A stretch of 62,838 nt of DNA, the filler included, from Craspedostauros australis (Eukaryota): the NCBI GenBank assembly GCA_030167865.1. It is 3 parts of 3 records of this genome, joined end to end, with 100 filler letters (N's around TTAATTAATTAA, not from the genome) between each part and the next. Parts side by side here need not be neighbours in the genome. Positions count along the whole stretch, not along the records: positions 1 to 31,979 come from JALAGF010006455.1; 2 more parts are not named here. One strand, written 5' to 3'. The notes under the pieces are model-generated. The model was not told the DNA's origin. It saw only the letters and a list, made by a program, of their open reading frames with translations, and did no database searches. Position 1 is the first letter of the stretch. The number at the start of each line of letters is the position of its first letter. Of the stretch, positions 1,368 through 32,241 are shown piece after piece. The position numbers and the translations under genes are program-made.

Positions 1368-1928
1368 ATGAGCGCCAACAACGACGCCCTGCCGCTGGGA
1401 TGGGGCGACCGCAACAATCAAATGTCGGAACACGACATGAAGCTGGGTGGCATGGCGGCCACCAAGTTTGCCAAGAAGGACACGGTGATGCCAACGAATA
1501 ATGCTTACGCCGACGACACGTCCGGGACTTACAAATCCAGCGATCAGGTGCGGGACTTTTATCTGTCCAAGATCTCAACAACGACGCACGTTGCCAGCAG
1601 CGCATCGCAATCGTTGCCCGCGGGATGGGAAAGTCGGCAGAGGAGCCGAGATTCGGAGGCCAAGCAGTATGGCGTATTCTCGCGCAATCCACCGCCAGTT
1701 GCAGCGACGACGGCAGCGACGACAGAAGTGGTGACAGACGATCCCAACTTTCGTGGGCCCGAAGTGGCACTCCTGCAGATTGCGACGCAGACGTTGGAAT
1801 CGTTGACGTCCTCCTTGCAAGCCACAAGCAGTAAGGCGCCGGTCGCATTGACGTTACAAGAAAAGACAGATTTCGCGAATGCTGTGAAGAATGCCATGGC
1901 GGCGTTGTCCAACACTACCACGAAATGA
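1368..1928 (+). CDS. Hypothetical protein (~186 aa)
   Basis: Open frame from ATG 1368 (MSANNDALPLGWG...) with coding-like composition, preceded by an A/C-rich leader. It has two LPxGW motifs and a helical C-terminus. No family recognised. Confidence 0.6.
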   Translation: MSANNDALPLGWGDRNNQMSEHDMKLGGMAATKFAKKDTVMPTNNAYADDTSGTYKSSDQVRDFYLSKISTTTHVASSASQSLPAGWESRQRSRDSEAKQYGVFSRNPPPVAATTAATTEVVTDDPNFRGPEVALLQIATQTLESLTSSLQATSSKAPVALTLQEKTDFANAVKNAMAALSNTTTK

Positions 1929-2147
1929 ACTCTGAGCACCATACATTGGAATATAGTAAAGTCGAGTATTTTCGTCTCTGGCCGATGAATCGTTTCCTCT
2001 TCAACTTTCGAGCCGCAAAGAGTTACGCCGTATTGCATCGCATGACGTTTACTTTATGTACACTGAGCAGAGCAGTCGAGTTGGTCTCTCCAAAGAATGA
2101 ATACCAACACACCTCGAGCACAAAAATAGTACTAGTACGCCCCCCGC

Positions 2148-3476: not shown

Positions 3477-4568
3477 TATTCGTTGTAGAATACAATATAT
3501 AATAATAAGCACTAGAGAATCTCTCTGGTGTACGTAGAGTCCGAGCTAGGCAGCAGATCGTTGCCTATGATACGGATGATACGTATAGTATGGGTCAAGT
3601 CCGGGCTGCTGCCTTGACAATGTCAAGTGTTGCGAAGGAGAGCGGAGTGTTGCAAATGATGACAGGATGGAAGTATAGCACCAGTGGAAGGATGGCACTT
3701 GTGCGATGCAGAGAGGAGGTCCTTCATTCCCAGGCAACGAGTGACGACTACTCCACCGGTATTCCGCTCGTAGTAGTATTCTACACTGGTCACCACAAAC
3801 TCCATCCAATCGGACGTTTGCCGATGCCTGTCTTCTCTTGTGTGACTGCATCTTCCACCCATCACGTGTGCACGATGGTGCCACAAAACCAAGAGAAATG
3901 GCCGAACGAAACGGTTGCCACCAACACGCGACAACACCGCGAATTTCACACGATCGAGAACAAAGACGCGTGCCAAACGAGAGACAAGAAAATTGGCATT
4001 CGCCTGTATGGTATCCGACCCATGCGACCACACTGTAGTCGTGAATTGTCTCATTGGACTGACGAAAACCATCACGACTCGATTCATTGGATCGATGACC
4101 AGAAACGCACAACATCAATGTCAACAAACGAAGACGAGAAAGATGAAAATAACGGTTGCAGGAGTCCAGCACGCGCGGTCACGTTTGTGCCGTTCTTTTT
4201 TCTGTGTGCCTGCTCTGCCTGTTGGAACAGCACGATTGAACTCACTTGCTCATGGATCCACCCCAACGAAGATGAAGAGGCACGAGGTGAGCATCATGCA
4301 AAGAGACAGCGAGGACAGATACGCTCACAGAACGGCATCTGCATCCCATCCAAAGAGAGGTGTGGAGAGAGTGGAGATTCCAGAGGCGCGTCTGTTCCTG
4401 CGTGCGAGTGGTCAGGGTTGACGATCAATCCAACCCCGGCGGCAAAGAGAGCGGGTCTGCGCGACACCACAAACCCAATAGCCGACCTCTTCGGCCCAAA
4501 CCAGAACCTGAGGAATCTGCTATCCCCAAAGCGCATCTTCACGCACCTGAGTGGGTGTTCTGGAACGA

Positions 4569-9400: not shown

Positions 9401-10987
9401 CTGCTCGAGCAGCTTGCCACCCGCAGCATTGTCCGCGCCCGCGCTGTTGTCCCGTAACAGCCTGTTGAGGAAGGACGTGTGTAGCGGTGCCCACGGTGAT
9501 AGCTCCTTGGCTTGGTGAACGTGAGGGTCGATCTCCTGCCGGATGGCGGACAGCAACATGAAGTTCCGAAGATCGACGTCTGTGAGCAGCGACGCCAGCA
9601 GTTCCAAGCTGGCAGCCGATGACCATTGCAAGTCGTCAAGGAAGAGGAAGACAGGTCGTTGGGGCGTCGAAATGGCTTTCATGAATTGGATGAAGATGTA
9701 GCAGAACCGGTTCCATGCACTTTGCGAATAGCTCGTGCTGTTGTTGTCGATGGTACTGTTGGTGGTGTTGTCGATAGCTTTGATGCGGCCTTGCCTGTTC
9801 CCGGTTGACGTAGAAATGTTATCTGCGGTACTGCCTGTCGCAACATGAGGAAGGCTGCTGTTGCCATGACTGCCATCTTCATTGGTGTCATTGTTGGATG
9901 ATGATCTTTGCCGCAAAGCTTTCGCAGATCGAGAGGGGAGACTTGACTGGACGTTGGTCGCCGATTCGACCGAATCTGGAAGGAGGACGGACAGTGATGG
10001 AACAACAGCAGTTAAGATTGACAAAGCAGAATGGCTGTGCTTTGCCGTATTGGGTTGCATTTGGCTCGTTGCATCGTCTTGACTCGTGCTCGTCTCGCTT
10101 TCATTGTGAGTAACGCTGCTGGCGTCAGCAGAGAATGCCTCTTCGATGCAACGTTGAATCCGCAGCAACTCCGCGGGCGATTCATGCTGGAGGTGCATTG
10201 CGAAGTCATCCAGCGCCTGCGTGATGGCGGAGAACGGATCCTTGCTTCCGATGAATTCATCGTACTTTCCCCGCAGCACGTAGCAACAGGAACATCTTTG
10301 AATGGTTCCAAGTCGTCTTCGTTGTTGTTGCTTTTCTATGGGCATCATTGCCGCTGCTGATGTTGCAGCCGTTGCTGATATTGTTGGTAGCAACGACGGT
10401 TGTTTCGACTTGTCTCTGCCTCCACAGGTGCAGCAGGATCGGCTCAGGAATTGGTCGATCAGCTCTGACTTTCCAGTTCCGCTCATTCCCCAAACCAACG
10501 CGGCTGGGAAGATGGGCTGGTCGTCATTGATGTGACGCCAGACACTTCTGAGATGAAGGAGTTCCTTTTCCCGTCCGAAGAACGCCTCTTTGGTGGGCCG
10601 AAGCGGTGCTTGGGGTGCGGATTCTGTCAGCAACGTCGGCATCGCTATCATCGCAGCGGACGTGGGGATAGCCGACTCAAACACAGCGGACGCGGCCTCC
10701 TCGCCTGCTGTTGTCGACACTCCCGACGTCGTTGTCGTCGTTGTCATCATTGTCGTTGGTGTTGCCGCTTCAATTGGGTGCTCTCTGGTGAGCGATTTGG
10801 CATTCTCCCATTCCAAGGAAGCGCTGGTGCGCGTGACGGTGGAGGTCGGCGTGCAGGAACGATCATCTTTCATGCTGACAGTGTTCTCGACATCCTTGAT
10901 GTTGTCTATCCTGTGCGTGGTGCCGCCCATGCTCCCACGCGTATGAGGATGGCTGTGAATACCGTCCATAGCATTCATTGTGTCCAT
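6494..10987 (-). CDS. STAND-class P-loop NTPase (AAA_16 / COG3899-like) with helical C-terminal region, 1497 aa, intronless
   Basis: Motifs FFGREKEL, Walker A GMSGTGKS, GKYDE, Walker B VFLFLDDLQW, KTHGNVYF, YHFAHDRVQQAA and C-terminal AIACECAAEY...YKEWG. These are typical of the ATPase core of Ser/Thr-kinase-ATPase-His-kinase hybrids. An in-frame stop just upstream fixes the start. Confidence 0.85.
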   Translation of the reverse strand: MDTMNAMDGIHSHPHTRGSMGGTTHRIDNIKDVENTVSMKDDRSCTPTSTVTRTSASLEWENAKSLTREHPIEAATPTTMMTTTTTTSGVSTTAGEEAASAVFESAIPTSAAMIAMPTLLTESAPQAPLRPTKEAFFGREKELLHLRSVWRHINDDQPIFPAALVWGMSGTGKSELIDQFLSRSCCTCGGRDKSKQPSLLPTISATAATSAAAMMPIEKQQQRRRLGTIQRCSCCYVLRGKYDEFIGSKDPFSAITQALDDFAMHLQHESPAELLRIQRCIEEAFSADASSVTHNESETSTSQDDATSQMQPNTAKHSHSALSILTAVVPSLSVLLPDSVESATNVQSSLPSRSAKALRQRSSSNNDTNEDGSHGNSSLPHVATGSTADNISTSTGNRQGRIKAIDNTTNSTIDNNSTSYSQSAWNRFCYIFIQFMKAISTPQRPVFLFLDDLQWSSAASLELLASLLTDVDLRNFMLLSAIRQEIDPHVHQAKELSPWAPLHTSFLNRLLRDNSAGADNAAGGKLLEQITLGDLSLKECIAWLSQLLHRSLYDTDLKILTFKIFNKTHGNVYFTLQAIEELMRREILVYSHAADRWEWDTLMISSHSNSNGNGNGATNDDDDLPIGDNIVAIVEQQLKQLPQELQYVLSVASYIRSTFDLPVLRAVLQYVDDHGGVDMAHIDEDIAANAMLTGPPTAEPIAWTTDRLYSVLERALMEGLVTNSTGETRYHFAHDRVQQAAHGLVPPGWAQNKLRSQIGRCLLTMYRQLRSLPPSIGEQDLSTSSGPNDVALIPASAQSTDHTTHETAIRDVDSLLFIAADHLNSARMKDHLFLVAFNVEVGRKALQMGAFATASGYLEKASKGLERVRNPWEEHYTICLHLFQCRAETELIQGNFAVGYRLANEIVQRARTFDEKLRIHLCMANALGREDRVADSLKTSLSVARKLGEFPKRFYRLHVIRDFTQIKSFLKKNTDEDIMNLPLQRGYRKKMAMKFIGEIGVRSYLAGDSLQWLVHALKLICMTIQSGIGEESPASFATLANMFDMTNEDRGLVMRCAGIANKMLQKVGGPVQTSWVNVIMAGSIYASSEPSGRCVHMFDRGYSLAMQAGDFELGLIALQSRNTLAFFFGYKLRPLVKAYESALQLYSIYNLTLYRISSQTMLMLTQYLAGVKPIDWDGIEHNLQRDAKCSAADPKELNRLINTYAGTLLLAMLFRRHDLVRRIMHLYSRLPEHAKSYYITMTATLVQGLLSSAMYRQTGKAKHKKQLKRLISATKTLIAAKGGNATSLLQLLKAELLSLKSTKSNLERVRRTDKAYNAAIGAAEKSALTHFCAIACECAAEYLIRQAKALSQHNSRADFQAIQLSMEELSCNYMTRAVECYKEWGCPVKVKDIQDRRSQYLKPDTDEELQGLGTPSTHDVQAARVVEMDNNKTGFTAGTVPPPSMAPQSNLEGRRSSFSRGGLEGDGGLPLHSSSHRTENDADGPNDHLSVLTDASG

Positions 10988-12499
10988 GGCCGCATGTGCT
11001 GTCTGCGGATGTTATGTCGGTTGCTCTCCCCTAGGCGCGTGATGGTTGCGATCGTAATTGTGATCGTGATTGTGATCGCGGTTGTGACCGTGACCGTGAT
11101 TGTGGCTGACGATGCTGGTGGAGCAGTCGGTTCTCCCTCTTTGCGCGAGGAACGCAGTTCTGCACCCACGCAATTGTTGTCGTTGTTCGTTTGCGCGTGC
11201 TTCTGTGAGCGTGCGTGCCAGTCGCGATCCATTTTCGGCGACACCACCTTTTGCGAACACAATGGGTTCTGTTCGAGTGCGAAACAGTACCGCAGGCAAA
11301 CAGAGCGAATGCACGAACAATCCGAGCGCCAAATTCACCACAAAGGAATGGCGGGAGACGACAAAAATTCCATTGCTCATCGTCTCGATCAAGGGAGCGC
11401 CATTGCAACCCGCCGTTATCCACACCCGCATTCTGCTTTATTCCGAGATGAGTCGAAGATGGGTCGAAGATTGGTCGGATGTTGCAAGGGGTTGCCGATT
11501 GCTATTGTGGCAGAAGCAACATAACACTTGGCAAGGTTTGGCGCGAAGAACTTGAAATTGGGGGAGCTACGGTAGTAAATACCAAATGCATAGAATTTGT
11601 GGAACAGAAATTGTGATTCTGACGTCGTCCAGGTTTTGTGTTGTTTCACGATTCAGCTCTTGTTTGCACATCATTATTTCCGTCTGTTACCGTCAGTCAC
11701 GTTGACTGTGTTCGTATCTTGGGGATGTTGTCTGGTTGCGTCGAAGCAAACGCGAGCGCGCACAACAGTGCATGAAAAAGTCAACGTGTTCTCTCCACAA
11801 TAAACAATTTGACGCCCGTGTTCACAATTAACCGTATAGAATTGGAGCACCGGCTCGACGCTAATTAAAATTGAAGACCCGCAATCACTGCGACATACAT
11901 TGTCCAATCAATGCATCGGAAAACACGTTTTGCTGTGCACTTGTCCGGCTGAAAGAAGGAACAATCGCAACAGCGAATCGGTTCGGACAGACCCGGAGTG
12001 ATCGTTTTCACCACAAACTCCATCAGAGAGCGCCCCATTCCTTGTCACGAGTACTGGTACGTGGAGAAAGCGCCACCGTCTCGCCACCCACGCTCTTCTT
12101 TGAGCAGGCACGAAGAATTATGCACCAACGCACACGACGGCTGGGGAGGAACAAAGCAGTTCTCCCCTCTCCGTGAACATGAGGGAGAGAGAAAACAACA
12201 CAACACAAGATGACGACCACACGACACGAAGTTGCACAAAGGCCACGCACAACCATTGAACGAAAAATCTCTCTCGGGACAAGGATCCATTCGTAGGTCG
12301 TACTGGATTGCGTACTAATAACAGTACGAAGAGAGGTACTCCAGCCCACAACTCATCATGTCCAACTCCAGACCGAACGATTCAGGGGATAGCAGCAGTC
12401 TCAGCAGGTCCGACAGCTGGTCCGAAGAGAAGCAATCAGAGTGCGTCGCTCGTGTTTGTGTTGGGGAGTGACGACAACAGAGACGGCAATTGTGTGGTG

Positions 12500-12523
12500 G
12501 AGAGAAAGAGAGAGAGAGAGAGA
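12500..12523 (+). repeat. (GA)n microsatellite in the intergenic region between the divergent STAND and mucin genes
   Basis: Imperfect AGAGAG run visible directly. Confidence 0.75.
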
Positions 12524-13423
12524 ACAAGCTATCACAGCCTCGATCATTCGTTTCCACATGTGCTGGTTGGGCTGGTCATGTTTGCTTCCTGCGTGCATGT
12601 GAGAGCCACTCCACCCACCAGGGTGTCTGTGCATGGCAAATCGAAGTCTTTCCTGTCTTTCCTGTGTTCCCAAACTCACAACCAGGCCAACAACGTTGAC
12701 CGGAATCGTCGTAATCTCTTCGTATTGCCCGATCACATCACTCACTCATGTCGCTGCTTTCTTTCTCCACATCCCGTGGACTGGACTTGGCAATTGGCTC
12801 TCTGGCTTTGGCTCTGTCTTTGACTCCACCTGTCCACTCGTACCATACGTTACACCCTTCGTGCTGGGCAACGACACACCGTGATACTCGTACGCCATAA
12901 TCTGCAACAGGAACGAATCAGACAACGTGTTGCCGTACGGGTACGGGTCTGCATGGTGGCAATCGCAACATGACGAACCAGATGCGCAAAGGTGTGTATT
13001 GGGTATTGGAAGTCGGTCTCTCCCAACGCAAACAATGTGATGCAGGTGCACGTCAATCTCCACATCGAAGGTTGCTGCAGCCCGGCGAGCCGGTCGGACC
13101 TCTTGTGCTGCGTATTGGTGCACATGCTCTTCGGTTGTATGGACGGTGCTGATCTTCGCCCTCTCAATTCCAGTTGGTGGGCATGAGGATGAGAATTGCT
13201 CAACATGGCGGTCATTGCAACGAACAGCGGCAGCCAATTGACACGAGCGCAAGTGCATTATAGTGTACAATGCCGCGCCCTCTTGAATTGACAGGTCCTC
13301 GCCGAATCTTTCCTCATCCCTTCCTCCACCTTTCCTCCACCTTTCCTCCCCATGACCTCTCACACCTTGGTCTCAAATATTCGATTCTGACAACTCTACA
13401 CTTCCCCACGATGCATCTGGCTG

Positions 13424-16400
13424 ATGGCGAACAGCGACAGCAACAGCGTTATAAGGTCTCCCAGATCCGCGGCTCCACGTGGGCATGTGTTGGGACAGGC
13501 GCTTTCCGAATCATCACCATCGAACATGCCACTGACGCATCAGCAATTACAGCCACATCCCAGCTCCCAGTCGCAAGCACGGCGTGGACAAACGCCAACT
13601 GCAGATCCAATGTTATCATCAATATCAACAGCGGCTGGTGATAGCAACCAAGTGCGTGGGGGCAACTCACGCTCCGAATTGTTTGTACCAAAGAAAACTC
13701 CCCGAAGAGAGCAGTCCGAATATGAGAGACAGACGCAGTTCTACCTCCAACAACCTCTTCAGATGGAGCAGCTGCGACAGGGATGGACCCAACTGCAGCA
13801 ATCGCTCACAAGTCTGGATTGCCCGTCGCTGTCCGAACAGCAGCAGGTGGATACCACAAGGTATGTGTGTACTCGTATGGTCCCATACAATGAAGAACAG
13901 GGCAAACCCCAATCCGAATCCAATTCCAAGTCAAACAGCCATCCGATGAACAGAGGCGATGGTCTTGAAATATTGCCGGTCGTCGAACACCGACCTCATT
14001 GAAGCGAGCTGCCGAACTGACGATCTCACATTCTCTCGTTCAATCCTATTCAATCCAACCCAACCCATTCCAACCTCTGTCACCACCTCGATGCAAACAC
14101 TTTCTCTCCAATTCTCACCTTTTCGATTGTCCACAGCCACAACGGAAGCCACGAATCGCCTTTTCGAAGTACACGTCCGTCACCGCATCGACCCAGACGG
14201 ACCAACCACAGGTATGTGCCTTTGGTGCCACCATGTATCCACGCACGGCTGTTCCGACATCATATCTCGCAAGGAGTTGGCTTCTCTCCGACTATTCCAG
14301 TATATGTCGCTCGAAAATGGGAAATGCCCATTGCGCAGCCGGAGTTGATTTGTATGTCACAGTTCGATGAACGCCTCATCATGCACGTTCGTTTCACATA
14401 CTTGTACCGTATCAGCGTCGTGCCTTCACACTCACATCTTGACCCTTCTTCCAAACTGTAACATATGCTTCTCTTCGCTGCACGATATTCTGCCGCATCG
14501 TCACACCGCGTTACACCATGACAACGTATTTTATTCGACATTTGATTTGGACGCGCATGCCACAGCTCGAATCGCTCATTCGATGCTCGATCGATAATGA
14601 GCGAAACGCCGAGTGAAAGGTCAAAACGGATAGCAAGGTGAGTACTGATAGAGTGCCCGCATCGATGACAACTGCAGCGTCCAAGGTCTCGTTCGCACCC
14701 TCTTCATCCACGAATGCTCACCATCCCATCTGAAACACAAACTTGCTGTGCTGGTACTCCTACATACGAACGTCATGCAAACTTGTATTCAAACTTTACG
14801 TTCCGCTGCTTCCCAGAAACATACTTCGCGACAATTGGAACTCTGCCTCTACAATCCGTTCGGAATCGATTCAGGAAAGAAAACAGCGCTTGGAAATGTA
14901 AGTACACACAACTGTATCGTCACTGCCACCGTCACGGATAGCAGCCAACCCCATCCTGTACCCGCCCTTGCAATACAACCGCATTTCTGATTCAGACATG
15001 CTTATTTTTCAATCCGTTTGCACCTAATCCGCCAACAACGTCGACCTATCCAATCGGAACGCGCGCACTCGCACATCTCAGAGGCGTCGGGAATGGCGTA
15101 AGCGCAATCCGGATGTTAGAACGTTCCGAAGAAGCGGTATTGCTGATCCAAGGTCGATTCCGACAGCACCAAGATGAACGGCGGCAGCAAAAGTATTCGT
15201 TCGACATGAGTGGAAGCACGCTTGGTGATTTCCCCCACGATGCCTCCAGAAACGTTGGGGCCGACTCATCTATCGATGTGCCAAAACAGCCCTACCTTTT
15301 GTCCTTCAAGGTTGATGGTGCCGGTCGCATCATGGAGCCCGGCAACAACGACGGTGACAGTTTCACATCGTCAGACAGCCATGCAGATCGTGGAGCGACA
15401 GGCAACAGTTCTTCCGCGGAAGCGGCCAAGAAATCAGGCCCATCACCAGGAGATCAGAAGGACAACGAATCCACCGACGGGACTGTCGACACGGAAGAAG
15501 ATAGGAGCAACTTTGCTCTTCTTTTTGTTGCATGCTTCAGCGCAGGGCTGATATTCTTCAAGTGCTTCTCATGGATTCTGCGCAAGTGTGGAAAGCAGGA
15601 AGATGCAGGCGGAGCAGATGGAGGGGCAATGGCGCCGCAGAATGGAGGCGCGAACGATGGTGGGGGTTTCGTTGGTACCGGAGGAGAAGGAGGAGGTGGC
15701 GCAGGAGGTGGCGGAGGTGGAGGTGGAGGTGGAGGCGGAGCTGCACCAGTTCCACCAGTAGTAGGCGCCCAGCTTGTTCTCCAACAAATGGCTGTCCAAG
15801 CCGCCGCAAATGCAGCCGGATCAGTCGCAGCAGGCGCTGCCGCCGGCGCCGCAGCCGCAGGTGCTGCAACAGGTTTGGCAGCTGCGGGTGCTGTGGCGGG
15901 ATCAGCACAAGCCGTGGGAGCCGTCGTTGTTTCCGCTGTTGCCGTTTCAGCGGCCGCTGTGGGTATCAGTGCGATTGTCGCTGAGCCCGTTACCGCTGTC
16001 TCATCCTGCGGAGTTCTCAATCCAGACTTCTTCCACGGCTCGCTGACCCTGGTCCTCGAAGGATTCGAACGGGCGTTCACCGAAGAAGAGACTGTGTCGA
16101 TTGAAGAACTGCTGGTGAACTCATACAACAACATTCTTGGAGATTGTGACGCAGTGTATGACCGAAAGATGATGAATGCGACCGTCGTTGCACAGAACTT
16201 TACCGCCACCTCCGATGGTAACTCCACATCTACGACTACAAGCTCCGCGACATCTTTCCAATTCGATACATTGATCGAGTGCATCGGCTGTCCACCGACT
16301 GAGCCGCTGTTTTCGTTTTGGGAGACTGAGCGACAAGAGCTGCGACGACTCTCGTTTCAATCGATCATCTCAGGCGAAGCATTTGGCTACCAACCGCAAT

Positions 16401-19400
16401 CACGCCGGACTCAACGAAGACGCCTGCAAGATGACCTGGTTGAACGGACCTTGGATGAAACCACGTTGTTCAAAGAGGTTGTTCAACGCTTCGATGTGAA
16501 TGTTGAAGAGCTCGTTGTGAAGGAGGAACTTCCGGGTGGATATCTTAGAGTGTTCGTTGCGTACGTGCAAAGGGACGATGATGGTGGAGAAATCATTCGA
16601 CAAGTCAACTTCACGATCCTCGATACTGATGCGCCATCCTCGATTCCGACAGATGACGGCCTGACATCAGCCCCGACACATGCGCCAACATCAACGCCGA
16701 CAGTGCCTACGCCTCTGCCAACGGCCGTGTCCGAGACCGAGACCGGTCAGCCGACGTTCCCACCGTCGGTCAGCTTGTCCCCCACGGGACTCCCGACCAC
16801 AACGAGCTCACCGACCGCCCTCGACGCGCAGACCACCGAGCCGACAACCTTGGAAAGGACGAGCGAACCCACATTTCCACCATCCATGGATCCCGATAAC
16901 GAAGTATCATCCACGCCTACAGCATTCATCGTGAAGACAGAGTCGCCCACGTTCCCACCCTCGGCCATTAATGAAACGATGACGCCAACAAATTCGATCA
17001 GCCAAGCACCATCTTGGAAACCATCATCGACGAGCGAGGTCCCCAGCGACCAACCTTCCAACAGCGAAGTACCGTCATCTCTGCCATCATCGAGGCCATC
17101 CTCAATTAGCGAAGTGCCCAGCGGGGTTCCGTCCACAGTGTCGTCTTTCCCACCAAGTTTTTCAAGTGCTGTCCCAACACACAGTGAATCGCCATCAGCT
17201 GCTCCATCATCGCAACCAAGTCAGTCCAGTGGAGTCCCATCGAGCAGCGAATCGCCATCGTCAACCCCATCTTCACAGCCAAGTGCTTCGAGTGCAGTGC
17301 CCACAGGCAGTGAGTCACCGTCATCACCTCCATCTTCACAGCCAAGTGGTTTGAGTGCAGTGCCCACAGGGAGTGAATCACCGTCAGCATCACCTTCGTC
17401 ACAACCAACTGCTTCGAGTGCAGTGCCCACAGGCAGTGAGTCACCGTCAGCAGCCCCATCTGCGCAGCCAAGTGGTTCGAGTGCCGTGCCGACAGGTAGT
17501 GAATCACCATCATCAGCCCCATCTTCACAACCAACTGCTTCGAGTACAGTGCCGACAGGCAGTGCATTGCCGTCAGCCGCACCTTCATCACAACCAAGTG
17601 TCACAAGCGCGGTGCCCACAGGGAGTGAATCACCGTCGTCAGCACCTTCGTCACAACCAACTGCTTCGAGTGCAGTGCCAACAGGTAGTGAATCACCGTC
17701 ATCAGCCCCATCTTCGCAGCCAAGTGGTTCGAGTGCAGTGCCCACAGGTAGCGAATCACCTTCAGCAGCCCCATCTTCACAGCCAAGTGCCACAAGCGCA
17801 GTGCCCACAGGGAGTGAATCACCGTCATCAGCACCTTCGTCACAACCAACTGCTTCGAGTGCAGTGCCAACAGGGAGTGAATCACCATCATCAGCCCCAC
17901 CTTCGCAGCCAACTGCTTCGAGTGCAGTGCCGACAGGGAGTGAATCGCCGTCAGCATCGCCTTCTTCACAGCCAACTGCTTCGAGTGCAGTGCCGACAGG
18001 GAGTGAATCACCTTCATCAGCCCCATCTTCACAGCCAAGTGGTTCGAGTGCCGTGCCCACAGGCAGTGANNNNNNNNNNNNNNNNNNNNNNNNNNNNNNN
18101 NNNNNTTCGAGTGCCGTGCCCACAGGCAGTGAATCGCCGTCATCAGCTCCATCTTCACAACCAACTGCTTCGAGTGCAGTGCCGACAGGCAGTGAGTCAC
18201 CGTCAGCAGCCCCATCTTCACAACCAAGTGCCACAAGCGCGGTGCCCACAGGGAGTGAATCACCGTCATCAGCACCTTCGTCACAACCAACTGCTTCGAG
18301 TGCAGTGCCGACAGGGAGTGAATCACCTTCATCAGCCCCATCTTCACAGCCAAGTGGTTCGAGTGCCGTGCCCACAGGCAGTGAGTCACCTTCAGCAGCC
18401 CCATCTTCACAGCCAACTGCTTCGAGTGCCGTGCCCACAGGCAGTGAATCGCCGTCATCAGCTCCATCTTCACAACCAACTGCTTCGAGTGCAGTGCCGA
18501 CAGGCAGTGAGTCACCGTCAGCAGCCCCATCTTCACAACCAAGTGCCACAAGCGCGGTGCCCACAGGGAGTGAATCACCGTCATCAGCACCTTCGTCACA
18601 ACCAACTGCTTCGAGTGCAGTGCCAACAGGGAGTGAATCACCTTCATCAGCCCCATCTTCACAGCCAAGTGGTTCGAGTGCAGTGCCCACAGGCAGTGAG
18701 TCACCTTCAGCAGCCCCATCTTCACAGCCAACTGCTTCGAGTGCAGTGCCAACAGGGAGTGAATCACCTTCATCAGCCCCATCTTCACAGCCAAGTGGTT
18801 CGAGTGCAGTGCCGACAGGGAGTGAATCACCGTCAGCAGCTCCATCTTCGCAACCAACTGCTTCGAGTGCAGTGCCGACAGGCAGTGAGTCACCGTCAGC
18901 AGCCCCATCTTCACAGCCGAGTGCAGAGAGCGGCATGCCCACAGGGAGTGAATCACCTTCATCAGCCCCATCTTCACAGCCAAGTGGTTCGAGTGCAGTG
19001 CCCACAGGTAGCGAATCGCCGTCAGCAGCTCCATCTTCACAGCCAAGTGCCACAAGCGCGGTGCCCACAGGTAGCGAATCACCGTCAGCAGCCCCATCTT
19101 CACAACCAACTGCTTCGAGTGCAGTGCCCACAGGGAGGGAATCACCTTCATCAGCCCCATCTTCACAGCCAACTGTTTCGAGTGCAGTTCCCACAGGTAG
19201 CGAGTCACCGTCAATATCACCTTCGTCACAGCCAACTGTTTCGAGCGCAGTTCCCACAGGTAGCGAGTCACCGTCATCGGCCCCATCTTCGCAGCCAAGT
19301 GGTTCGAGCGCGGTGCCCACAGGTAGTGAATCACCGTCAGCAGCCCCATCTTCACAGCCAACTGCTTCGAGTGCAGTGCCTACAGGGAGTGAATCACCTT

Positions 19401-22400
19401 CATCAGCCCCGTCTTCGCAGCCAACTGTTTCGAGTGCAGTGCCCACAGGTAGCGAGTCACCGTCAGTATCACCTTCGTCACAGCCGAGTGCAGAGAGCGG
19501 CATACCCAAAGGTAGTGAATCACCGTCATCACTTTCATCTTCACAGCCAAGTGGTTCGAGTGCAGTGCCAACAGGCAGCGAGTCACCGTCAGCAGCCCCA
19601 TCTTCACAGCCGAGTGCAGAGAGCGGCATGCCGACAGGCAGTGAGTCACCGTCAGCAGCCCCATCTTCACAGCCAACTGTTTCGAGTGCAGTGCCCACAG
19701 GTAGTGAATCGCCGTCATCACTTCCATCTTCACAGCCAAGTGTCACAAGCGCGGTGCCAACAGGGAGTGAATCACCGTCATCAGCCCCATCTTCACAACC
19801 AACTGCTTCGAGTGCAGTGCCCACAGGTAGTGAATCGCCATCAGTATCACCTTCTTCACAGCCGAGTGCAGAGAGCGGCATGCCGACAGGCAGTGAATCG
19901 CCGTCATCAGCACCTTCGTCACAACCAACTGTTTCGAGTGCAGTGCCTACAGGCAGTGAGTCACCGTCATCACCTCCATCTTCACAACCAACCGCTTCGA
20001 GTGCAGTGCCCACAGGCAGTGAGTCACCGTCAGTATCACCTTCTTCACAACCAAGTGGTTCGAGTGCAGTTCCCACAGGTAGTGAATCACCTTCATCAGC
20101 CCCATCTTCACAACCAAGTGCTTCGAGTGCAGTGCCGACAGGCAGTGAGTCACCGTCAGCAGCCCCATCTTCACAGCCAACTGTTTCGAGTGCAGTGCCC
20201 ACAGGTAGTGAATCGCCGTCATCACTTCCATCTTCACAGCCAAGTGTCACAAGCGCGGTGCCCACAGGGAGTGAATCACCGTCATCAGCCCCATCTTCGC
20301 AGCCAACTGCTTCGAGTGCAGTGCCGACAGGGAGTGAATCGCCGTCAGCATCGCCTTCTTCACAGCCAACTGCTTCGAGTGCAGTGCCAACAGGGAGTGA
20401 ATCACCTTCATCAGCCCCATCTTCACAACCAACTGCTTCGAGTGCAGTGCCGACAGGCAGTGAATCACCGTCATCAGCCCCATCTTCGCAACCAACTGCT
20501 TCGAGTGCAGTGCCAACAGGGAGGGAATCACCTTCATCAGCCCCATCTTCACAGCCAAGTGGTTTGAGTGCAGTGCCGACAGGTAGTGAATCACCGTCAG
20601 TATCACCTTCTTCACAGCCGAGTGCAGAGAGCGGCATGCCCACAGGGAGTGAATCACCTTCATCAGCCCCATCTTCACAGCCAACTGCTTCGAGTGCAGT
20701 GCCCACAGGTAGCGAATCGCCGTCAGCAGCCCCATCTTCACAGCCAAGTGCCACAAGCGCGGTGCCCACAGGGAGTGAATCACCGTCCGTATCACCTTCT
20801 TCACAACCAACTGCTTCGAGTGCAGTGCCAACAGGGAGTGAATCACCGTCAGCAGCTCCATCTTCGCAACCAACTGCTTCGAGTGCAGTGCCGACAGGCA
20901 GTGAGTCACCGTCAGCAGCCCCATCTTCACAGCCGAGTGCAGAGAGCGGCATGCCCACAGGGAGTGAATCACCTTCATCAGCTCCATCTTCACAGCCAAG
21001 TGGTTCGAGTGCCGCGCCCACAGGTAGCGAATCACCTTCATCAGCCCCATCTTCACAGCCAAGTGCCACAAGCGCGGTGCCCACAGGGAGTGAATCACCG
21101 TCCGTATCACCTTCTTCACAACCAACTGCTTCGAGTGCAGTGCCAACAGGGAGTGAATCACCGTCAGCAGCTCCATCTTCGCAACCAACTGCTTCGAGTG
21201 CAGTGCCGACAGGCAGTGAGTCACCGTCAGCAGCCCCATCTTCACAGCCGAGTGCAGAGAGCGGCATGCCCACAGGGAGTGAATCACCTTCATCAGCCCC
21301 ATCTTCACAGCCAAGTGCCACAAGCGCGGTGCCCACAGGTAGCGAATCACCGTCAGCAGCACCTTCTTCACAACCAAGTGCTTCGAGTGCAGTGCCAACA
21401 GGCAGTGAGTCACCGTCATCAGCACCTTCGTCACAACCAAGTGCTTCGAGTGCAGTGCCGACAGGGAGTGAATCACCGTCCGTATCACCTTCTTCACAAC
21501 CAACTGCTTCGAGTGCAGTGCCGACAGGCAGTGAATCGCCGTCATCAGCTCCATCTTCACAGCCAACTGCTTCGAGTGCAGTGCCCACAGGCAGTGAATC
21601 ACCTTCATCAGTCCCATCTTCACAGCCAAGTGCCACAAGCACGGTGCCCACAGGGAGTGAATCACCGTCATCAGCACCTTCGTCACAACCAACTGCTTCG
21701 AGTGCAGTGCCCACAGGCAGTGAGTCACCGTCAGCAGCCCCATCTTCACAGCCGAGTGCAGAGAGCGGCATGCCAACAGGGAGTGAATCACCTTCATCAG
21801 CCCCATCTTCACAGCCAACTGCTTCGAGTGCAGTGCCCACAGGCAGTGAGTCACCTTCATCAGCCCCATCTTCACAGCCAAGTGCCACAAGCGCGGTGCC
21901 CACAGGGAGTGAATCACCTTCATCAGCACCTTCGTCACAACCAACTGCTTCGAGCGCAGTGCCAACAGGGAGGGAATCGCCTTCAGCAGCCCCATCTTCG
22001 CATCCAACTGTTTCGAGTGCAGTGCCAACAGGGAGTGAATCACCGTCAGTATCACCTTCTTCACAGCCGAGTGCAGAGAGCGGCATGCCAACAGGGAGTG
22101 AATCACCTTCATCAGCCCCATCTTCACAGCCAACTGCTTCGAGTGCAGTGCCAACAGGGAGTGAATCACCTTCATCAGCTCCATCTTCACAGCCAAGTGG
22201 TTCGAGTGCAGTGCCCACAGGTAGCGAATCGCCGTCAGCAGCCCCATCTTCACAGCCAAGTGCCACAAGCGCGGTGCCCACAGGGAGTGAATCACCGTCC
22301 GTATCACCTTCGTCACAACCAAGTGGTTCGAGTGCAGTGCCGACAGGGAGTGAATCACCGTCAGCAGCTCCATCTTCACAGCCAACTGCTTCGAGTGCAG

Positions 22401-25400
22401 TGCCCACAGGTCGCGAGTCACCGTCAGTATCACCTTCGTCACAGCCGAGTGCAGAGAGCGGCATGCCAACAGGCAGTGAGTCACCGTCATCAGCCCCATC
22501 TGCGCAGCCAAGTCGTTCGAGTGCAGTGCCGACAGGCAGTGAATCACCTTCATCAGCCCCATCTTCACAACCAAGTGTCACAAGCGCGGTGCCCACAGGC
22601 AGTGAGTCACCATCATCAGCTCCATCTTCACAACCAATTGGTTCGAGTGCAGTGCCGACAGGCAGTGAATCGCCGTCAGTCCCACCTTCTTCGCAGCCAA
22701 GTGGTTCGAGTGCGGTGCCCACAGGTAGTGAATCACCTTCATCAGCTCCATCTTCACAGCCAACTGGTTCGAGTGCGGCGCCCACAGGCAACGAATCGCC
22801 ATCAGTATCACCTTCATCACAACCAAGTGGTTCGAGTGCAGTGCGCACAGGCAGTGAATCACCTTCATCAGCACCTTCGTCACAACCAACTGCTTCGAGT
22901 GCAGTGCCGACAGGCAGTGAGTCACCGTCATCAGCTCCATCTTCACAACCAAGCGTTGCAAGCGCTGTACCTACTGGCAGTGAATCACCGTCATCAGCTC
23001 CATCTTCACAACCAACTACTTCGAGTGCAGTGCCCACAGGCAGCGAATCGCCATCAGTATCACCTTCATCACAACCAAGTGGTTCGAGTGCAGTGCCGAC
23101 AGGCAGTGAGTCACCATCACCAGCACCTTCGTCACAACCAAGCGTTGTAAGCGCTGTACCCACTGGCAGTGAATCACCGTCATCAGCACCATCTTCACAA
23201 CCAACTGCTTCGAGTGCAGTGCCCACAGGCAGTGAGTCACCGTCATCAGCACCTTCGTCACAACCAAATGTTTCGAGTGCAGTGCCCACAGGCAGTGAGT
23301 CACCGTCATCACCTCCATCTTCGCAACCAACTGCTTCGAGTGCAGTGCCCACAGGGAGTGAATCACCGTCAGTATCACCTTCTTCACACCCAACTGCTTC
23401 GAGTGCAGTGCCAACAGGTAGTGAATCACCTTCATCAGCCCCATCTTCACAACCAAGTGCTTCGAGTGCAGTGCCCACAGGAATTGAGTCACCGTCAGCA
23501 GCCCCATCTTCACAGCCAACTGGTTCGAGTGCAGTGCCCACAGGCAGTGAATCACCGTCAGTATCACCTTCTTCACAACCAACTGCTTCGAGTGCGGTGC
23601 CGACAGGCAGTGAGTCACCGTCAGCAGCACCTTCATCACAACCAAGTGTCACGAGCGCGGTGCCCACAGGGAGTGAATCACCGTCATCAGCACCATCTTC
23701 ACAACCAACTGCTTCAAGTGCGGTGCCGACAGGCAGTGAGTCACCGTCATCAGCACCTTCATCACAACCAAGTGTCACAAGCGCGGCGCCCACAGGCAGT
23801 GAATCGCCGTCATCGGCCCCATCTTCGCAGCCAAGTGGTTCGAGTGCAGTGCCGACAGGTAGTGAATCACCGTCAGTATCACCTTCTTCACAACCAACTG
23901 CTTCGAGTGGAGTGCCCACAGGCAGTGAATCACCGTCAGCAGCCCCATCTTCACAACCAAGTGTCACAAGCGCGGTGCCCACAGGTAGCGAATCACCGCC
24001 ATCAGCTCCATCTGCGCAGCCAAGTGTCACAAGCGCGGTGCCGACAGGCAGTGAGTCACCGTCATCAGCCTCATCTTCACAACCAAGTGCAGAGAGTGCA
24101 GCGCCGACAGGTAGCGAGTCACCGTCGGTGGCTCCATCATCACAGCCAAGTCTCTCGAGTGCTGTCCCAACAGGCAGTGAATCGCCATCAGCAGCATTTA
24201 CATCACAACCAAGTGCTGAGAGCGCGGTGCCGACAGGCAGTGAATCGCCATCAGTATCACCTTCATCCCAGCCAACTGCTTCGAGTGCGGTGCCGACAGG
24301 CAGTGAGTCACCGTCAGTATCACCTTCCTCGCAACCAACTGCTTCGAGTGCAGTGCCCACAGGCAGTGAATCACCGTCATCAGCTCCATCTTCACAACCA
24401 ACTGCTTCGAGTGCAATGCCCACAGGCAGTGAATCATCGTCATCAGCACCTTCATCACAGCCAACTGCTTCGAGTGCGGTGCCGACAGGCAGTGAGTCAC
24501 CGTCATCAGCACCTTCTTCACAGCCGAGTGCAGGCAGCGGTTTGCCGACAGGCAGTGAGTCACCATCATCAGCCCCATCTTCACAACCAACTGCTTCGAG
24601 TGCAATGCCCACAGGCAGTGAATCACCGTCAGTATCACCTTCATCCCAGCCAACTGCTTCGAGTGCGGTGCCGACAGGCAGTGAGTCACCGTCATCAGCA
24701 CCTTCATCACAGCCAAGTCTCCCGAGTGCTGTCCCAACAGGCAGTGAATCGCCATCACTATCACCTTCTTCACAGCCAAGTGCTGAGAGCGCGGTTCCAA
24801 GCGGAAGCGAATCACCGTCAGCAGCACCTTCCGCAAAGCCAAGTGCAGAGAGCGGCATGCCGACAGGTAGTGAGTCACCGTCAGCAGCACCTTCCTCACA
24901 GCCAAGTGTCGCAAGCGCGGTACCCACAGGTAGTGAATCGCCATCAGCATCACCTTCGTCACAACCAAGTGTTTCGAGTGCAATGCCGACAGGTAGTGAA
25001 TCGCCATCCTTCCCACCGAGCGCATTGTCATCGGGCCCTTCCATCTTTCCATCATCCTTCCCATCGCGCTTACCAACAGAGAATCCAACGTCAGCGCCGA
25101 CTCTGAAGGAGAGCGAATTGCCGTCATTCTCTCCATCCTCTACTCCAAGCGAGGTAACGGAATCTCCGACATCACATCCAACCGATGCACCAACAGTGAA
25201 GCGCAGCGAGTCACCATCTATCGCTTCATCTTCGACTCCCAGTGCATCAACAGAATCACCAACATCAAACCCAACGTCGGCACCGACGGTCAAAATTAGC
25301 AGAGCACCATCCATCGCTCCATCTTCTACTCCAAGCGAGGCAACGGAATTACCAACATCAAACCCAACATCAGCACCCACAGTCAAGCACAGCGAGACAC

Positions 25401-26881
25401 CATCTATCGCTCCATCTTCTACTCCAAGCGAAGCAACAGAATCTCCGACATCAAATCCAACATCAGCGCCCACAATCAAGCACAGCGAGACACCATCTAT
25501 CTCTCCATCTTCTACTCCAAGCGCGGCAACAGAGTCGCCGACATCAAACCCAACATCAGCGCCCACAATCAAGCACAGCGAGACACCATCTATCTCTCCA
25601 TCTTCTACTCCAAGCGCGGCAACAGAGTCGCCGACATCAAACCCAACATCAGCGCCCACAATCAAGCACAGCGAGACACCATCTATCGCTCCATCTTCTG
25701 CTCCAAGTGAAGCAACGGAATCACCAACATCAAACCCAACATCAGCGCCCACAATCAAGCACAGCGAGACACCATCTATCTCTCCATCTTCTGCTCCAAG
25801 TGAAGCAACAGAGTCGCCGACATCACATCCAACAGACGCACCTACCGTCAAGCACAGCGAGACACCATCTATCGCTCCATCTTCTACTCCTAGTGAGGCA
25901 ACGGAATCCCCGACATCAAATCCAACAGACGCACCAACAGTCAAGCACAGCGAGACACCATCTATCGTTCCATCTTCTGCACCAAGTGAAGCAACAGAAT
26001 CGCCAACATCAAACCCAACATCAGCGCCCACAGTCAAGCACAGCGATTCGCCATCCACCGCTCCATCTTCTCCTCCAAGCGAATCAACAGAACCGCCGAC
26101 ATCAAATCCAACATACGCACCAACGCGAAAGGATAGCGAATCGCCATCCACCAGTCCTTCGTCGGCTCCTAGTGAAGAAACAGAGTCGCCGACAATCAAG
26201 CCAACGTCAGCGCCCACGCTGAAGGAGAGCGAGTCGCCGTCGTTCTCTCCGTCCTTCACTCCAAGCGAGGCAACAGAATCGCCAACAAGCAATCCAACAT
26301 CGTCACCGACCGTCAAAACCAGTGAATCACCATCGTTCTCTCCGAGCGAAGAAACAACATCGCCAACACGTAGCCCGACATCGATCCCGACCGAAATCGA
26401 TTCGGCAGTGCCTACAGACATGCCTCGCATCACAACAAGCGCTCCAACTGTCGCTCCAACCCAAGGCCCAACTGCAGCTCCAGTTGCGACTCTGATTTCA
26501 GTATCCAGCACCGAAAGGACCATCGTTGAAGGGGCACCAAATTCTATCACTTTCAGTGGTCTGTCTCAAGCGCAGGCAGGCTCTTCAGTCAGCATCACCC
26601 TGATTCTGTTCGGGGATTTTGGCAATGATTCGGAGCACTCAACAATCTCCTTCGAAGGGACCGAGACCGACATTGCAACTTTCGTTCCTAACAGTGGTTC
26701 CACAAACCACCAAGGCGACTGCAACACTGTGCCACACGAACTCACCATTCCTGTCCCCGCATCCCAGTTCAATCAAAACTTTGTTTCGAGTTCCATTACT
26801 TTCATCGTGGAGCACTCAGTTGAAGTGAATACATTTTGCAGCAGAAACGGCGTCCGAATCAGTTTGGAGTACTTTGCTTGA
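13424..26881 (+). CDS. Giant membrane-anchored mucin-like PTS-repeat protein (~4,130 aa); model join(13424..13860,14137..14211,14566..14637,15082..26881)
   Basis: The 3922-aa ORF at 15113-26881 extends upstream through three GT-AG introns (donors AG|GTATGT, AG|GTATGT, AG|GTGAGT; CAG acceptors), all phase 2 and stop-free in frame. It contains an IQ-like motif, two hydrophobic segments, a Cys-containing domain, RRL sites, 22-aa and 31-aa repeats and a C-terminal beta-rich domain. One N gap at ~18070-18105 makes the length uncertain. Confidence 0.8.
17165..25010 (+). repeat. Coding tandem repeat, 66-bp unit (22 aa, SSAVPTGSESPSSAPSSQPTAS), about 120 copies
   Basis: Directly visible periodic sequence and translation. 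Copy number estimated as span/66; assembly collapse or expansion is possible. Confidence 0.95.
25060..26350 (+). repeat. Coding tandem repeat, 93-bp unit (31 aa, SEATESPTSNPTSAPTIKHSETPSISPSSTP), about 14 copies
   Basis: Period of 93 nt seen, for example between 25520 and 25613. Confidence 0.9.
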
Positions 26882-28904: not shown

Positions 28905-29844
28905 ATGATGTTCAAGACCAGCACCCTAGCTCTCCTCCTGGCTTCCGCCATGGCCCTTTTCGTCAACAACGACTCCGCATTCGTTGCCGCCCACGACTCT
29001 GACAACGAGAAGGTCGACGACTTCGACATCCTGAAGGCCACCCGCCGACTCAAGTCTGCCAGCATCCCAGATGGACCACAGTCCCTCATTGTCCGCGTCA
29101 CCAACCTGGCCTTCCGCCAGCCATTCAGCGGCCTCTTCCTCATGGTTCACACCCGTGCCGCCGGCCCACTCTTCACCCTCGGTACGCCAGCCAGCGCTGC
29201 CCTCGGAACCCTCGCTGAGAACGGAGATCCATCCGCTTTGGTCACCGCATACGATGGCAAGCCAGGTGTCGCTACCGCCAAGGCCGTCGCAGGTCCAATC
29301 GGACCAGGCGCCAGCCTCGACATCCCAGTCACCGTCCCAGCTGGCTACTACGTCACCATCGCCACCATGGCGGTCAACACCAACGATTGGTAAGTAATGG
29401 ATATTCGTATGATTGTGTTGTCATCACATCGTTCACTATTGAATCAGAGGACAGAATCGAATCGAACCGAATCATATCTCTCACATTATCGTGCCCCCAT
29501 TGTTTCATTCTCTCATCCGATGACATCTCGTCACCACGTCCTCTTCAACAAAATCTCACCACGACACAACCAACAGCTTCGTCGCCCTGAGCGGTGCCAA
29601 GATCAGTCCAGGTGACATGTTCCGCGGAGTTGGATACGATTCCGGTACCGAGGTCAACAACCAGCAGTGTGATTCCATCCCAGGACCAGCCTGCCCAGCC
29701 GGCAACAACGCTGATGGTAACGGCGAGGGCTTCGTCCACATCCACCGCGGCATCCAGTCTGATGTTCCAACCAACACCCTCCCAAACACCCAGAACTACG
29801 ACTGGCGCAACCCAATGGTCCAGTTCCGTGTCATGAGCGCCTAA
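28905..29844 (+). CDS. Secreted Spondin_N-domain protein (250 aa); join(28905..29389,29577..29844)
   Basis: Signal peptide MMFKTSTLALLLASAMA and RRL motif. Spondin_N motifs VRVTNL..QPFS, LAENGD, NTNDCF (restored by splicing TG|C), YDSGTEVN, GEGFVHIHRG and YDWRNP. Intron GTAAGT...CAG. Strong C-ending codon bias. Confidence 0.88.
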
Positions 29845-31979: not shown

Positions 31980-32079
31980 NNNNNNNNNNNNNNNNNNNNN
32001 NNNNNNNNNNNNNNNNNNNNNNNTTAATTAATTAANNNNNNNNNNNNNNNNNNNNNNNNNNNNNNNNNNNNNNNNNNNN
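31980..32079. other. Artificial scaffold spacer (N44-TTAATTAATTAA-N44)
   Basis: Exactly 100 nt. The central 12-mer gives stops in all six frames. Identical to the spacer at 60570-60669. Confidence 0.95.
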
Positions 32080-32241
32080 ACAGTGGCGTTCGACGATCGG
32101 TGTCATCGTGTGTACGAGGAACATGAAGGTTTCAACCCCTTACGCAAGAAAAGAAAGCGTACACACCCACGGAATATGCCGACGGAAAGGCCTTGGATGG
32201 GTCCCAATCGGTTGCATGCCTTCGGACTGGTCATTCCCATG

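Follow-up and report, generated by a model that had tools for sequence, protein, structure and literature searches.

The halves of cleaved SEA domains in animal mucins are held together by a non-covalent fold, and the autoproteolytic turn of SEA domains is of the G/SVVV type, located between strands 2 and 3. Fungal Wsc and Mid wall stress sensors carry a head on a Ser/Thr-rich stalk, are anchored once in the membrane, and signal through a cytosolic tail. Apicomplexan TRAP/MIC2 and Chlamydomonas FMG-1B are anchored adhesins with a short, motor-coupled cytosolic tail and proteolytic release close to the membrane. In the diatom Craspedostauros australis, the proteins CaTrailin4, Ca5609, and CaFAP1 are thought, in the available text of the preprint that describes them, to be heavily O-glycosylated and micrometre-long (10.1101/2023.03.06.531300). 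A further giant protein of this diatom is described here. Its gene lies at positions 15113 to 26881 of the plus strand in a window of 62,838 nucleotides, filler included (GenBank assembly GCA_030167865.1), within the part that comes from JALAGF010006455.1 (positions 1 to 31,979).

On balance, the open reading frame (ORF) is best read as encoding a giant protein from a diatom family not described before, whose members would be surface glycoproteins with a membrane anchor and a stalk, resembling membrane mucins of inverted (type II) polarity. In such a protein, the N-terminal tail would be cytosolic and contain an IQ-type helix, and one firm transmembrane (TM) helix, TM1, would be oriented N-in/C-out. 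A Gly/Ala-rich, charge-free segment would either not cross the membrane or cross it twice. A SEA-like domain would adjoin the membrane, followed by a stalk of ~3,285 residues rich in Ser, Pro, Thr, and Ala and by a small beta-rich head. The features are as follows.

15113..26881 (+): whole coding frame, 3,922 codons plus stop, read as intronless; homology over residues 1-516 and codon-position test
15134..15184 (+): IQ-type motif, residues 8-24, in a predicted helix of residues 2-28; motif hidden Markov model (HMM) and PDB profile matches
15197..15511 (+): disordered, acidic, Ser-rich linker, residues 29-133; predicted local distance difference test score (pLDDT) <50 for residues 29-127
15512..15580 (+): TM1, residues 134-156; Kyte-Doolittle peak 2.22, helix 130-159 at pLDDT 83-93, conserved in long forms
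15581..15766 (+): Gly-rich spacer; poly-Gly at 15689-15739 (residues 193-209), with a Gly run in the family consensus
15767..15991 (+): Ala/Gly/Val-rich charge-free segment, residues 219-293; hydrophobic core 254-292, includes Met226
15992..16627 (+): folded juxtamembrane domain, residues 294-505; ferredoxin-like beta-alpha-beta-beta-alpha-beta sandwich, SEA-like, with conserved Cys 299, 345, 390, and 393
16292..16456 (+): strand 3-helix 2 loop of the juxtamembrane domain, residues 394-448; pLDDT <50 for 426-443, helix modelled at 404-419, contains both RRL sites
16343-16351 and 16418-16426 (+): RRL sites, residues 411-413 and 436-438; from the translation
16628..17151 (+): irregular Pro/Thr/Ser-rich start of the stalk; translation and repeat analysis
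17152..25002 (+): ~125 units of 63 bp (21 residues), Ser/Pro-rich and mildly acidic; Tandem Repeats Finder
25131..26316 (+): second array, 12.8 units of 93 bp (31 residues), Thr/Ser/Pro-rich with one Lys per unit; Tandem Repeats Finder
26486..26878 (+): C-terminal domain, 131 residues, with Cys 3870 and Cys 3909; predicted all-beta, six strands

Much of this layout had been proposed in a sequence-only reading of the stretch, and the translation agrees with it on the IQ-like motif, the Cys-containing hydrophobic helix, the poly-Gly hinge followed by an Ala-rich second hydrophobic segment, the two RRL sites, and a C-terminal domain of ~130 residues with two Cys, which is predicted to be beta-rich. 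The lack of an N-terminal signal peptide is borne out, and the tails of relatives are alike in this. The proposed Cys-containing folded domain was modelled confidently, and the general picture of a membrane-anchored, mucin-like giant stands, with TM1 as a firm anchor and a Pro/Thr/Ser (PTS)-rich stalk.

Coding evidence and repeat selection

The large frame opens at 14942, directly behind a stop codon (14939-14941), and the earliest ATG in it, at 15113, is taken as the gene start. Codon usage was gene-like in the N-terminal module and the C-terminal domain (log-likelihood per codon, +0.15 and +0.11, respectively), and the 171 bases between 14942 and the ATG had a non-coding score (-0.22). The sequence-only reading had placed the start at 13424. 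That position belongs to a separate ORF of 192 codons (13424-14002), and stop codons of the large frame lie in between. This ORF was also rejected as a first exon: its codon usage is not gene-like (-0.004 per codon), and it resembles neither the relatives nor their N-terminal regions. In a tblastn search of 21 N-terminal pieces of relatives against 11500-15300, the IQ motif alone matched below an E-value of 0.01. By eye, the residues immediately upstream of Met1 bear only a faint resemblance to the conserved pre-IQ stretch of the family.

The repeats themselves are informative about coding. Across 113 units of 63 bp in register, entropy was 0.235, 0.230, and 0.875 at the first, second, and third codon position, respectively, so that the third varied ~4-fold more than either of the others. 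Codon differences among these units were 12,316 synonymous versus 6,823 non-synonymous in this frame but 781 versus 18,518 and 797 versus 18,676 in the two shifted frames. As the synonymous excess is present in this frame only, the array is translated in this frame and selection keeps the protein sequence. The interval 15113-26881 is a real gene encoding ~3,900 residues, with repeats under protein-level selection. An antisense ORF of 3,109 codons (17221-26550, -) and several long ORFs in other plus-strand frames also run through the array. These are by-products of repeat composition, because excess synonymous variation is restricted to the plus-strand frame of 15113.

The stalk (residues 506-3790, ~3,285 residues) consists of 35% Ser, 19% Pro, 11% Ala, 9% Thr, and 6% Glu, and the first four figures also apply to residues 560-3780. 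The first array was listed with periods of 126, 189, and 315 on the 63-bp basic unit, with ~81-83% matches at the DNA level, and contains a run of 36 N (18070-18105), so that the unit count is a lower limit. When the protein was split at every P-T-G, 123 pieces resulted, of which 114 were exactly 21 residues long, in 51 distinct variants. The ~3,000 residues of near-perfect P/T/S repeats proposed earlier are correct in extent, given the PTS region at 506-3790, but overstated in regularity, with units of ~81% DNA identity and 51 variants among 114. The 21-residue repeats have essentially no Lys. The long Ser/Thr/Pro-rich tandem-repeat region by which mucins are recognized is present, and the stalk is presumably O-glycosylated. 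If extended, its length would be 0.82-1.15 micrometres, taking 0.25-0.35 nm per residue.

A diatom family without a Pfam model

Residues 1-516 were searched exhaustively with phmmer, which gave 123 representatives at E ≤1e-3, with 39 at ≤1e-10 and three at ≤1e-30. The best relative (E 1.2e-39) has 36% identity, and the best relatives as a set (E 1e-39 to 1e-27) are 33-41% identical over TM1, the Gly/Ala-rich segment, and the domain. The conserved module aligned over query residues ~113-410. A jackhmmer search with the domain detected it in 118 of 130 fetched proteins, some with 2-4 tandem copies; P0002, P0004, and P0009 have three or four tandem SEA-like domains before the stalk. Word-indexed searches with the family alignment and with the juxtamembrane domain (against longer proteins) returned no relatives, and low-complexity words probably crowded the alignment search.

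The order of elements in the family, derived from an alignment of long forms and an 83-sequence alignment, is as follows. A variable tail is followed by the stretch D-E-A-x3-Y-T-x-x-E-x-A-A-x-x-I-Q-x-x-F-R, an acidic linker, TM1, a stretch containing Lys and Gly, and a Gly run. An Ala/Gly-rich charge-free stretch then starts from a conserved Met and leads into a Val/Ala-rich hydrophobic core. The four-Cys domain comes next, with its variable R-R-L loop and a final helix and two strands, and PT/PS repeats complete the series. In transcriptome ORFs of Cylindrotheca closterium (the P0037/P0128/P0129 cluster), the IQ motif, TM1, the second segment, and the domain lie in one frame.

Nineteen relatives have organism names: six from C. 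closterium (one via a transcriptome cluster), two from Cylindrotheca fusiformis, four from a Bacillariaceae metagenome-assembled genome, and seven from Seminavis robusta. All 19 are from raphid pennate diatoms. The comparison of raphid with centric species suggested in the sequence-only reading gave a raphid source for every named relative, over a lookup that covered 30 of the 123 representatives; the other 11 are metagenome or read-assembly proteins.

No Pfam model covers the family module (~120 representative clusters), and none was matched in the N- or C-terminal part of the query. Literature searches found no description of the family, although the supplements of the trail-protein preprint (10.1101/2023.03.06.531300) could include relatives. 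Searches combining diatom, SEA domain, and mucin found no paper, and searches on raphid gliding, IQ motif, and transmembrane found no title on such a family. Six Seminavis gene identifiers of the family occurred in no paper text searched, and one of the six is present in the available supplement of PMC7335047, in a table row marked "Core." New here are the family itself and its SEA-like fold, the conservation of the RxL loop and of an internal Met, the finding of lectin-type heads in relatives, and the probable cytosolic character of the tail.

Juxtamembrane domain and RxL loop

An AlphaFold2 model built with 83 aligned family sequences had a mean pLDDT of 62.5, with most of residues 295-500 above 85. 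The domain comprises a strand (305-316), a helix (324-342), two strands (352-364 and 379-390), the loop, a second helix (449-469), and two further strands (479-486 and 494-499). Conserved features include the four Cys, an invariant Y-N, and a C-x-x-C followed by P-L-F, and the domain has four N-x-S/T sequons.

In a Foldseek search of the PDB with the model of this domain, the first row was human MUC16 SEA5 (E 0.019, probability 0.69). The same SEA domain ranked first among 48,161 chains compared by VIA-align, a method independent of Foldseek (Z 7.9, root mean square deviation 3.0, 111 of 122 residues). Subsequent rows included a second MUC16 chain (Z 7.6), residues 82-207 of TMPRSS6 (Z 7.6), residues 369-506 of Gpr126 (Z 7.4), a mouse MUC16-like SEA domain (Z 6.8), and the membrane-adjacent domain of protocadherin-15 (Z 6.7). 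At Z 6.3 were the SEA domain of a transmembrane protease and a chain of the dystrophin-glycoprotein complex 8yt8, which we take to be dystroglycan. MUC16, TMPRSS6, Gpr126, and two more SEA entries were within the top 16 rows. The ESM Atlas returned a SEA cluster at a score of 0.78, which is under the Atlas reliability line. A family profile searched against PDB sequences matched low-complexity regions only and no SEA chain. No G/SVVV-type motif was seen by eye in residues 294-505, for which no pattern search was run. We read the domain as a ferredoxin-like sandwich whose nearest solved neighbours appear to be membrane-proximal SEA or SEA-like domains, a resemblance of predicted structure that is middling in strength.

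The loop between strand 3 and helix 2 is a candidate cleavage region. R-x-L occurred there in 64 of 79 first-copy domains of relatives, with a dibasic form in 31, compared with 28% of shuffled loops (first-copy domains with C-x-x-C and at least 40 following residues were used, and the next 70 residues were scanned). In the available text of PMC5647440, RXL is described as a proteolytic cleavage site of diatom secretory proteins, known from biosilica-associated ones, with a processing role that is still a hypothesis. In the Craspedostauros protein, an RxL site in the disordered loop would probably be cut in the secretory pathway. From residue 394 to the end of the domain there is no Cys, and after a cut, helix 2, the final strands, and the stalk would therefore be held to the membrane stump only by the non-covalent fold, from which the stalk could be pulled off or shed under load.

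N-terminal tail and IQ-type motif

The IQ consensus is [FILV]Q-x3-[RK]-G-x3-[RK]. A strict pattern, E-x-A-A-x-x-I-Q-x-x-F-R, occurs upstream of TM1 in the query and 17 representative clusters. In the alignment of these 18 segments, A, I, Q, and R are invariant, and the I-Q-x3-R half is present in 18 of 18. The query departs from the consensus by having Q at the G position and its last basic position displaced by one. A motif HMM made without the query matched query residues 5-26 with 10.5 bits (E 2e-5, single sequence). When the 18-segment profile was compared with all PDB sequences, 18 matches were obtained at E ≤10, of which 13 were IQ segments of calmodulin-binding proteins (E 0.012-9.3). 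These included Sp17 (E 0.012), a peptide of the rdgC phosphatase (0.024), Nav1.4, Nav1.5, PCP4, and PPEF2, in addition to neurogranin and neuromodulin, in which the entries name the IQ motif; matched segments not so named in their entries are presumed to be IQ regions. The other five matches were designed TPR proteins aligned to another part of the profile. The E-values of the motif profile are marginal, as expected for 20 residues. One relative, P0097, has two tandem IQ motifs.

The 110 residues between the motif and TM1 (~24-133) contain 11 Lys/Arg, 20 Asp/Glu, and 18 Ser. In none of the 14 tails examined, nor in the query, does the start look like a signal peptide. The tails that precede the IQ motif in Cylindrotheca relatives are long and basic, with 79 Lys/Arg and 18 R-x-x-S sites in the 518 residues of P0128, 59 Lys/Arg in the 275 residues of P0013, and 50 Lys/Arg in the 281 residues of P0003. 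They consist of long Ser/Arg/His-rich repeats with many R-R-S-L-type sites, and these arrays look like phosphorylation sites of basophilic kinases.

Membrane segments and topology

In a Kyte-Doolittle scan (19-residue windows, threshold >1.5), hydrophobic windows in the whole protein started only at residues 131-139 and 254-283. TM1 contains a Cys and is directly followed by a short basic stretch with a Cys. The second, 75-residue segment is uncharged in nearly all relatives. AlphaFold gave it a low-confidence helix at 219-247 and no structure at 248-294. In most close relatives, it looks more marginal than TM1 on the Hessa scale, a measure too crude here for assigning topology.

Met226 (15788-15790) lies within the low-complexity Ala-rich part of this segment. 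Of 82 aligned relatives, 61 conserve it, and of the 33 with at least 60 residues upstream, 30 do. Seventeen gene models of relatives begin exactly at this column. It may be an alternative start for a short signal-anchored or secreted form, or the models may reflect a restart of the gene caller on truncated contigs.

The ambiguity of topology that the sequence-only reading attributed to two hydrophobic segments is a real problem. The tail is most likely cytosolic, as none of the starts resembles a signal peptide and translocation of long pre-IQ tails rich in Lys/Arg is improbable. For the stalk, an extracellular position is most likely, given the lectin-type heads of relatives, the conserved Cys and sequons in the domain, and the RxL sites of secretory-pathway type. 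With the tail inside and the stalk outside, the number of crossings must be odd, and the second segment would therefore cross zero times or twice. The N-in/C-out orientation is accordingly likely, though well short of certain.

Alternative readings

Several observations weigh against the type II, mucin-like reading. At the N-terminus, the 5' end of the gene is based on the first ATG alone, and an upstream exon may exist. The motif is at the extreme N-terminus, the upstream half of the conserved stretch is missing, and the distance from motif to TM1 is 110 residues in the query compared with 27-44 in 12 of 13 relatives. Conservation of the IQ motif in homologs, the lack of which the sequence-only reading named as a refutation, holds within the nearest subfamily (17 representative clusters) but does not extend to the seven Seminavis relatives, which do not match the motif HMM. 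Nor was the Pfam IQ model (PF00612) matched by the query (E ≤1), its 33- and 103-residue N-terminal pieces (E ≤10), or 14 relatives (E ≤0.1), although HMMER filters may discard such short IQ matches. For the domain, Foldseek gave no PDB match at E ≤1e-3, and the Pfam SEA model (PF01390) was unmatched at E ≤1. Unrelated ferredoxin-like chains are interspersed among the VIA-align rows (Csy1, Z 7.6; PheRS, 7.0; HMG-CoA reductase, 6.8), and Z-scores below 8 can reflect merely a common arrangement. Relatives of the C-terminal domain were not found in a word-indexed search against longer proteins or among 130 family proteins. Regarding topology, two hydrophobic segments that each crossed once would place both ends on the same side. 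In 19 of 24 long forms, the N-side flank of TM1 has the more negative net charge, and the Cys and basic residues right after TM1 in the query are compatible with an N-out orientation. Lys/Arg counts of the same flanks are neutral and do not decide topology (mean 2.25 on the N side versus 1.88 on the C side; N>C in 11, C>N in eight, and equal in five).

These points on charge lead to the possible, but improbable, arrangement of a two-pass hairpin, in which tail and stalk are both outside, the Gly/Ala-rich loop is cytosolic, and the IQ-like helix is not a calmodulin site, leaving a doubly anchored surface mucin. Each hydrophobic segment would be used once. The N flank of TM1 is strongly acidic, its C flank has Lys/Arg and Cys, and the lower net charge on the N side in 19 of 24 long forms fits; the second segment has an uncharged N flank and a mildly acidic C flank. 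However, the hairpin requires that tails as long as ~570 residues, containing as many as 79 Lys/Arg, be translocated with no signal peptide to direct them, and it leaves a conserved IQ-type motif without a known partner outside the cell. The second segment also has no confident AlphaFold helix, unlike TM1, and the Lys/Arg counts by themselves are neutral.

About equally improbable is a stalk that exists as a soluble product, with a short form translated or transcribed from Met226 (its Ala/Val-rich segment acting as signal peptide or anchor) or an RxL cut supplying secreted mucilage or cell coat rather than a tether. Conservation of the Met226 column and the gene models that start there are consistent with this, as are the conserved RxL site and the giant PTS proteins known from diatom trails, as described in the available preprint text (10.1101/2023.03.06.531300). 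Against it, many of the short models are on short metagenome contigs and may be truncated gene calls, whereas the genome-annotated and transcript-derived relatives scanned have at least ~250 residues before the domain. A soluble product would also be compatible with the anchored type II protein and is not exclusive of it.

Proposed function and the gliding hypothesis

In the favoured type II reading, an O-glycosylated stalk would keep a binding or contact domain remote from the plasma membrane, the IQ helix would be a calmodulin or light-chain handle on the cytosolic stump, and the protein might serve in adhesion or mechanosensing. Modelling of both globular domains, suggested in the sequence-only reading, was successful for the juxtamembrane domain, which is SEA-like, but the single-sequence AlphaFold model of the C-terminal domain was too poor for use (pLDDT 45.5). 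The C-terminal domain matched no Pfam family, and the ESM Atlas gave only a PT-repeat cluster at 0.83. Relatives have diverse heads beyond the stalk: WSC (P0003, E 4e-13), discoidin-like galactose-binding (P0013, 1.4e-8), ricin-B lectin (P0131, 1e-25), and FG-GAP/Kelch-like repeats (P0014, 1e-11). Since the C-terminal domain is found in place of these lectin-type heads, a binding or contact role is no more than a reasonable guess.

Gliding models need a membrane-spanning molecule that joins actomyosin to adhesive strands, and in papers from 2024 and 2026 the transmembrane component of the gliding complex is still drawn as hypothetical. The gene and its family provide a concrete, testable class of candidates for this missing link. 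As a transmembrane coupler of the raphid adhesion-motility complex, the IQ tail would connect through calmodulin or light chains to raphe myosin, the stalk would be the adhesive strand, and the cut SEA-like module would be the release point, with stalks left in the trail. The architecture supplies every element of such a coupler, all 19 organism-named relatives (30 of 123 looked up) are from motile raphid pennates, and a stalk of 0.8-1.15 micrometres exceeds the raphe depth of 300-500 nm given in the available text of PMC11420354. Nevertheless, known trail proteins have signal peptides and no membrane anchor in the available preprint text (10.1101/2023.03.06.531300), the Seminavis relatives lack the IQ motif, and the diversity of heads in the family fits general surface adhesion or sensing equally well. 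The coupler is unlikely, and somewhat less favoured than either the hairpin or the soluble product. Its fullest form is slightly more doubtful again. In that form, raphid-specific myosins would pull the IQ tail along raphe actin, the micrometre-long glycosylated stalk would pass through the raphe to the substratum, the RxL-cut SEA-like module would be a mechanical fuse by which used stalks stay in the trail, and the whole would be an independent invention of an inverted membrane mucin.

A silica-deposition or frustule membrane protein like the SAPs or Silicanin-1, linking cytoskeleton to forming wall with the Ser-rich part in or on silica, is very improbable, because although silicalemma-associated proteins share RXL sites, Ser-rich lumenal regions, and a TM anchor, they have a signal peptide and the opposite orientation in the available text of PMC5647440, the 21-residue repeats are nearly Lys-free, the heads of relatives are lectin-type, and similarity to silicalemma families was not seen in the searches.

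Genomic surroundings

Neighbouring ORFs in the window are eukaryotic and include PDZ, ankyrin repeat, DNA primase small subunit, PhoD-like phosphatase, AAA_16 NTPase, and copia-type reverse transcriptase matches. The next ORF downstream (28905-29390, +) has a textbook signal peptide with R-R-L ~25 residues on and no Pfam family. Its layout resembles that of a diatom secretory pro-peptide and would offer a contrast to the large ORF as a normal secreted protein.

6494-10987 (-): ORF of 1,497 codons, AAA_16 NTPase (E 1.9e-20), possibly a STAND-type NTPase
31980-39395: lower G+C (0.42-0.47) with nine runs of 44-74 N; a stretch of poor assembly, possibly repetitive or mobile-element DNA
61030-62838 (+), still open where the window ends: RVT_2 match (E 4.7e-41), the reverse transcriptase of a copia-type retrotransposon at the window edge

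Comparison with known systems

Among diatom proteins, SAP1-3 and Silicanin-1 are likewise membrane proteins with Ser-rich lumenal parts and RXL sites (PMC5647440, available text). They differ in being small and silica-associated, with a signal peptide and a C-terminal cytosolic domain, and no similarity to them was found here. CaTrailin4, Ca5609, and CaFAP1 of the same species are also very large, repetitive, and PTS-rich (10.1101/2023.03.06.531300). In the available text of that preprint they carry signal peptides, lack an anchor, and contain CAA, vWA-like, or Cys-rich repeat domains, and neither an IQ motif nor a SEA-like domain is reported for them. No such domain was found in the present protein: CAA (PF20597) was unmatched in the Pfam scan and the N-terminus is not signal-peptide-like, while GDPH, for which Pfam has no model, was not searched for by name.

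TRAP/MIC2 and FMG-1B have no sequence or domain relationship to this protein and would be a working analogy for the gliding reading. The logic of head, stalk, anchor, and tail is shared with the fungal Wsc/Mid sensors, and relative P0003 ends in a WSC domain. Here, however, the polarity is opposite and the length >10-fold greater, and homology is limited to the WSC head of P0003.

In build and proposed function, the nearest counterparts are the animal SEA mucins MUC1 and MUC16, which combine, as the proposed layout does, a Ser/Thr/Pro repeat stalk, a ferredoxin-like juxtamembrane domain (a predicted fold in the diatom protein), one firm anchor, a short cytosolic tail, and a proteolytic site in the domain, which is a candidate site in the diatom protein. 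In contrast to these mucins, the diatom protein would have opposite polarity with an N-terminal anchor, and it has no signal peptide and no sequence similarity to them. The site where it may be cut also differs, being an RxL after strand 3 and before helix 2 instead of a G/SVVV turn, and the Gly/Ala-rich segment and the IQ motif of the tail are additional. Even if unrelated to gliding, the family would represent an independently evolved, inverted membrane mucin with a SEA-like domain, of relevance to force-bearing surface tethers.

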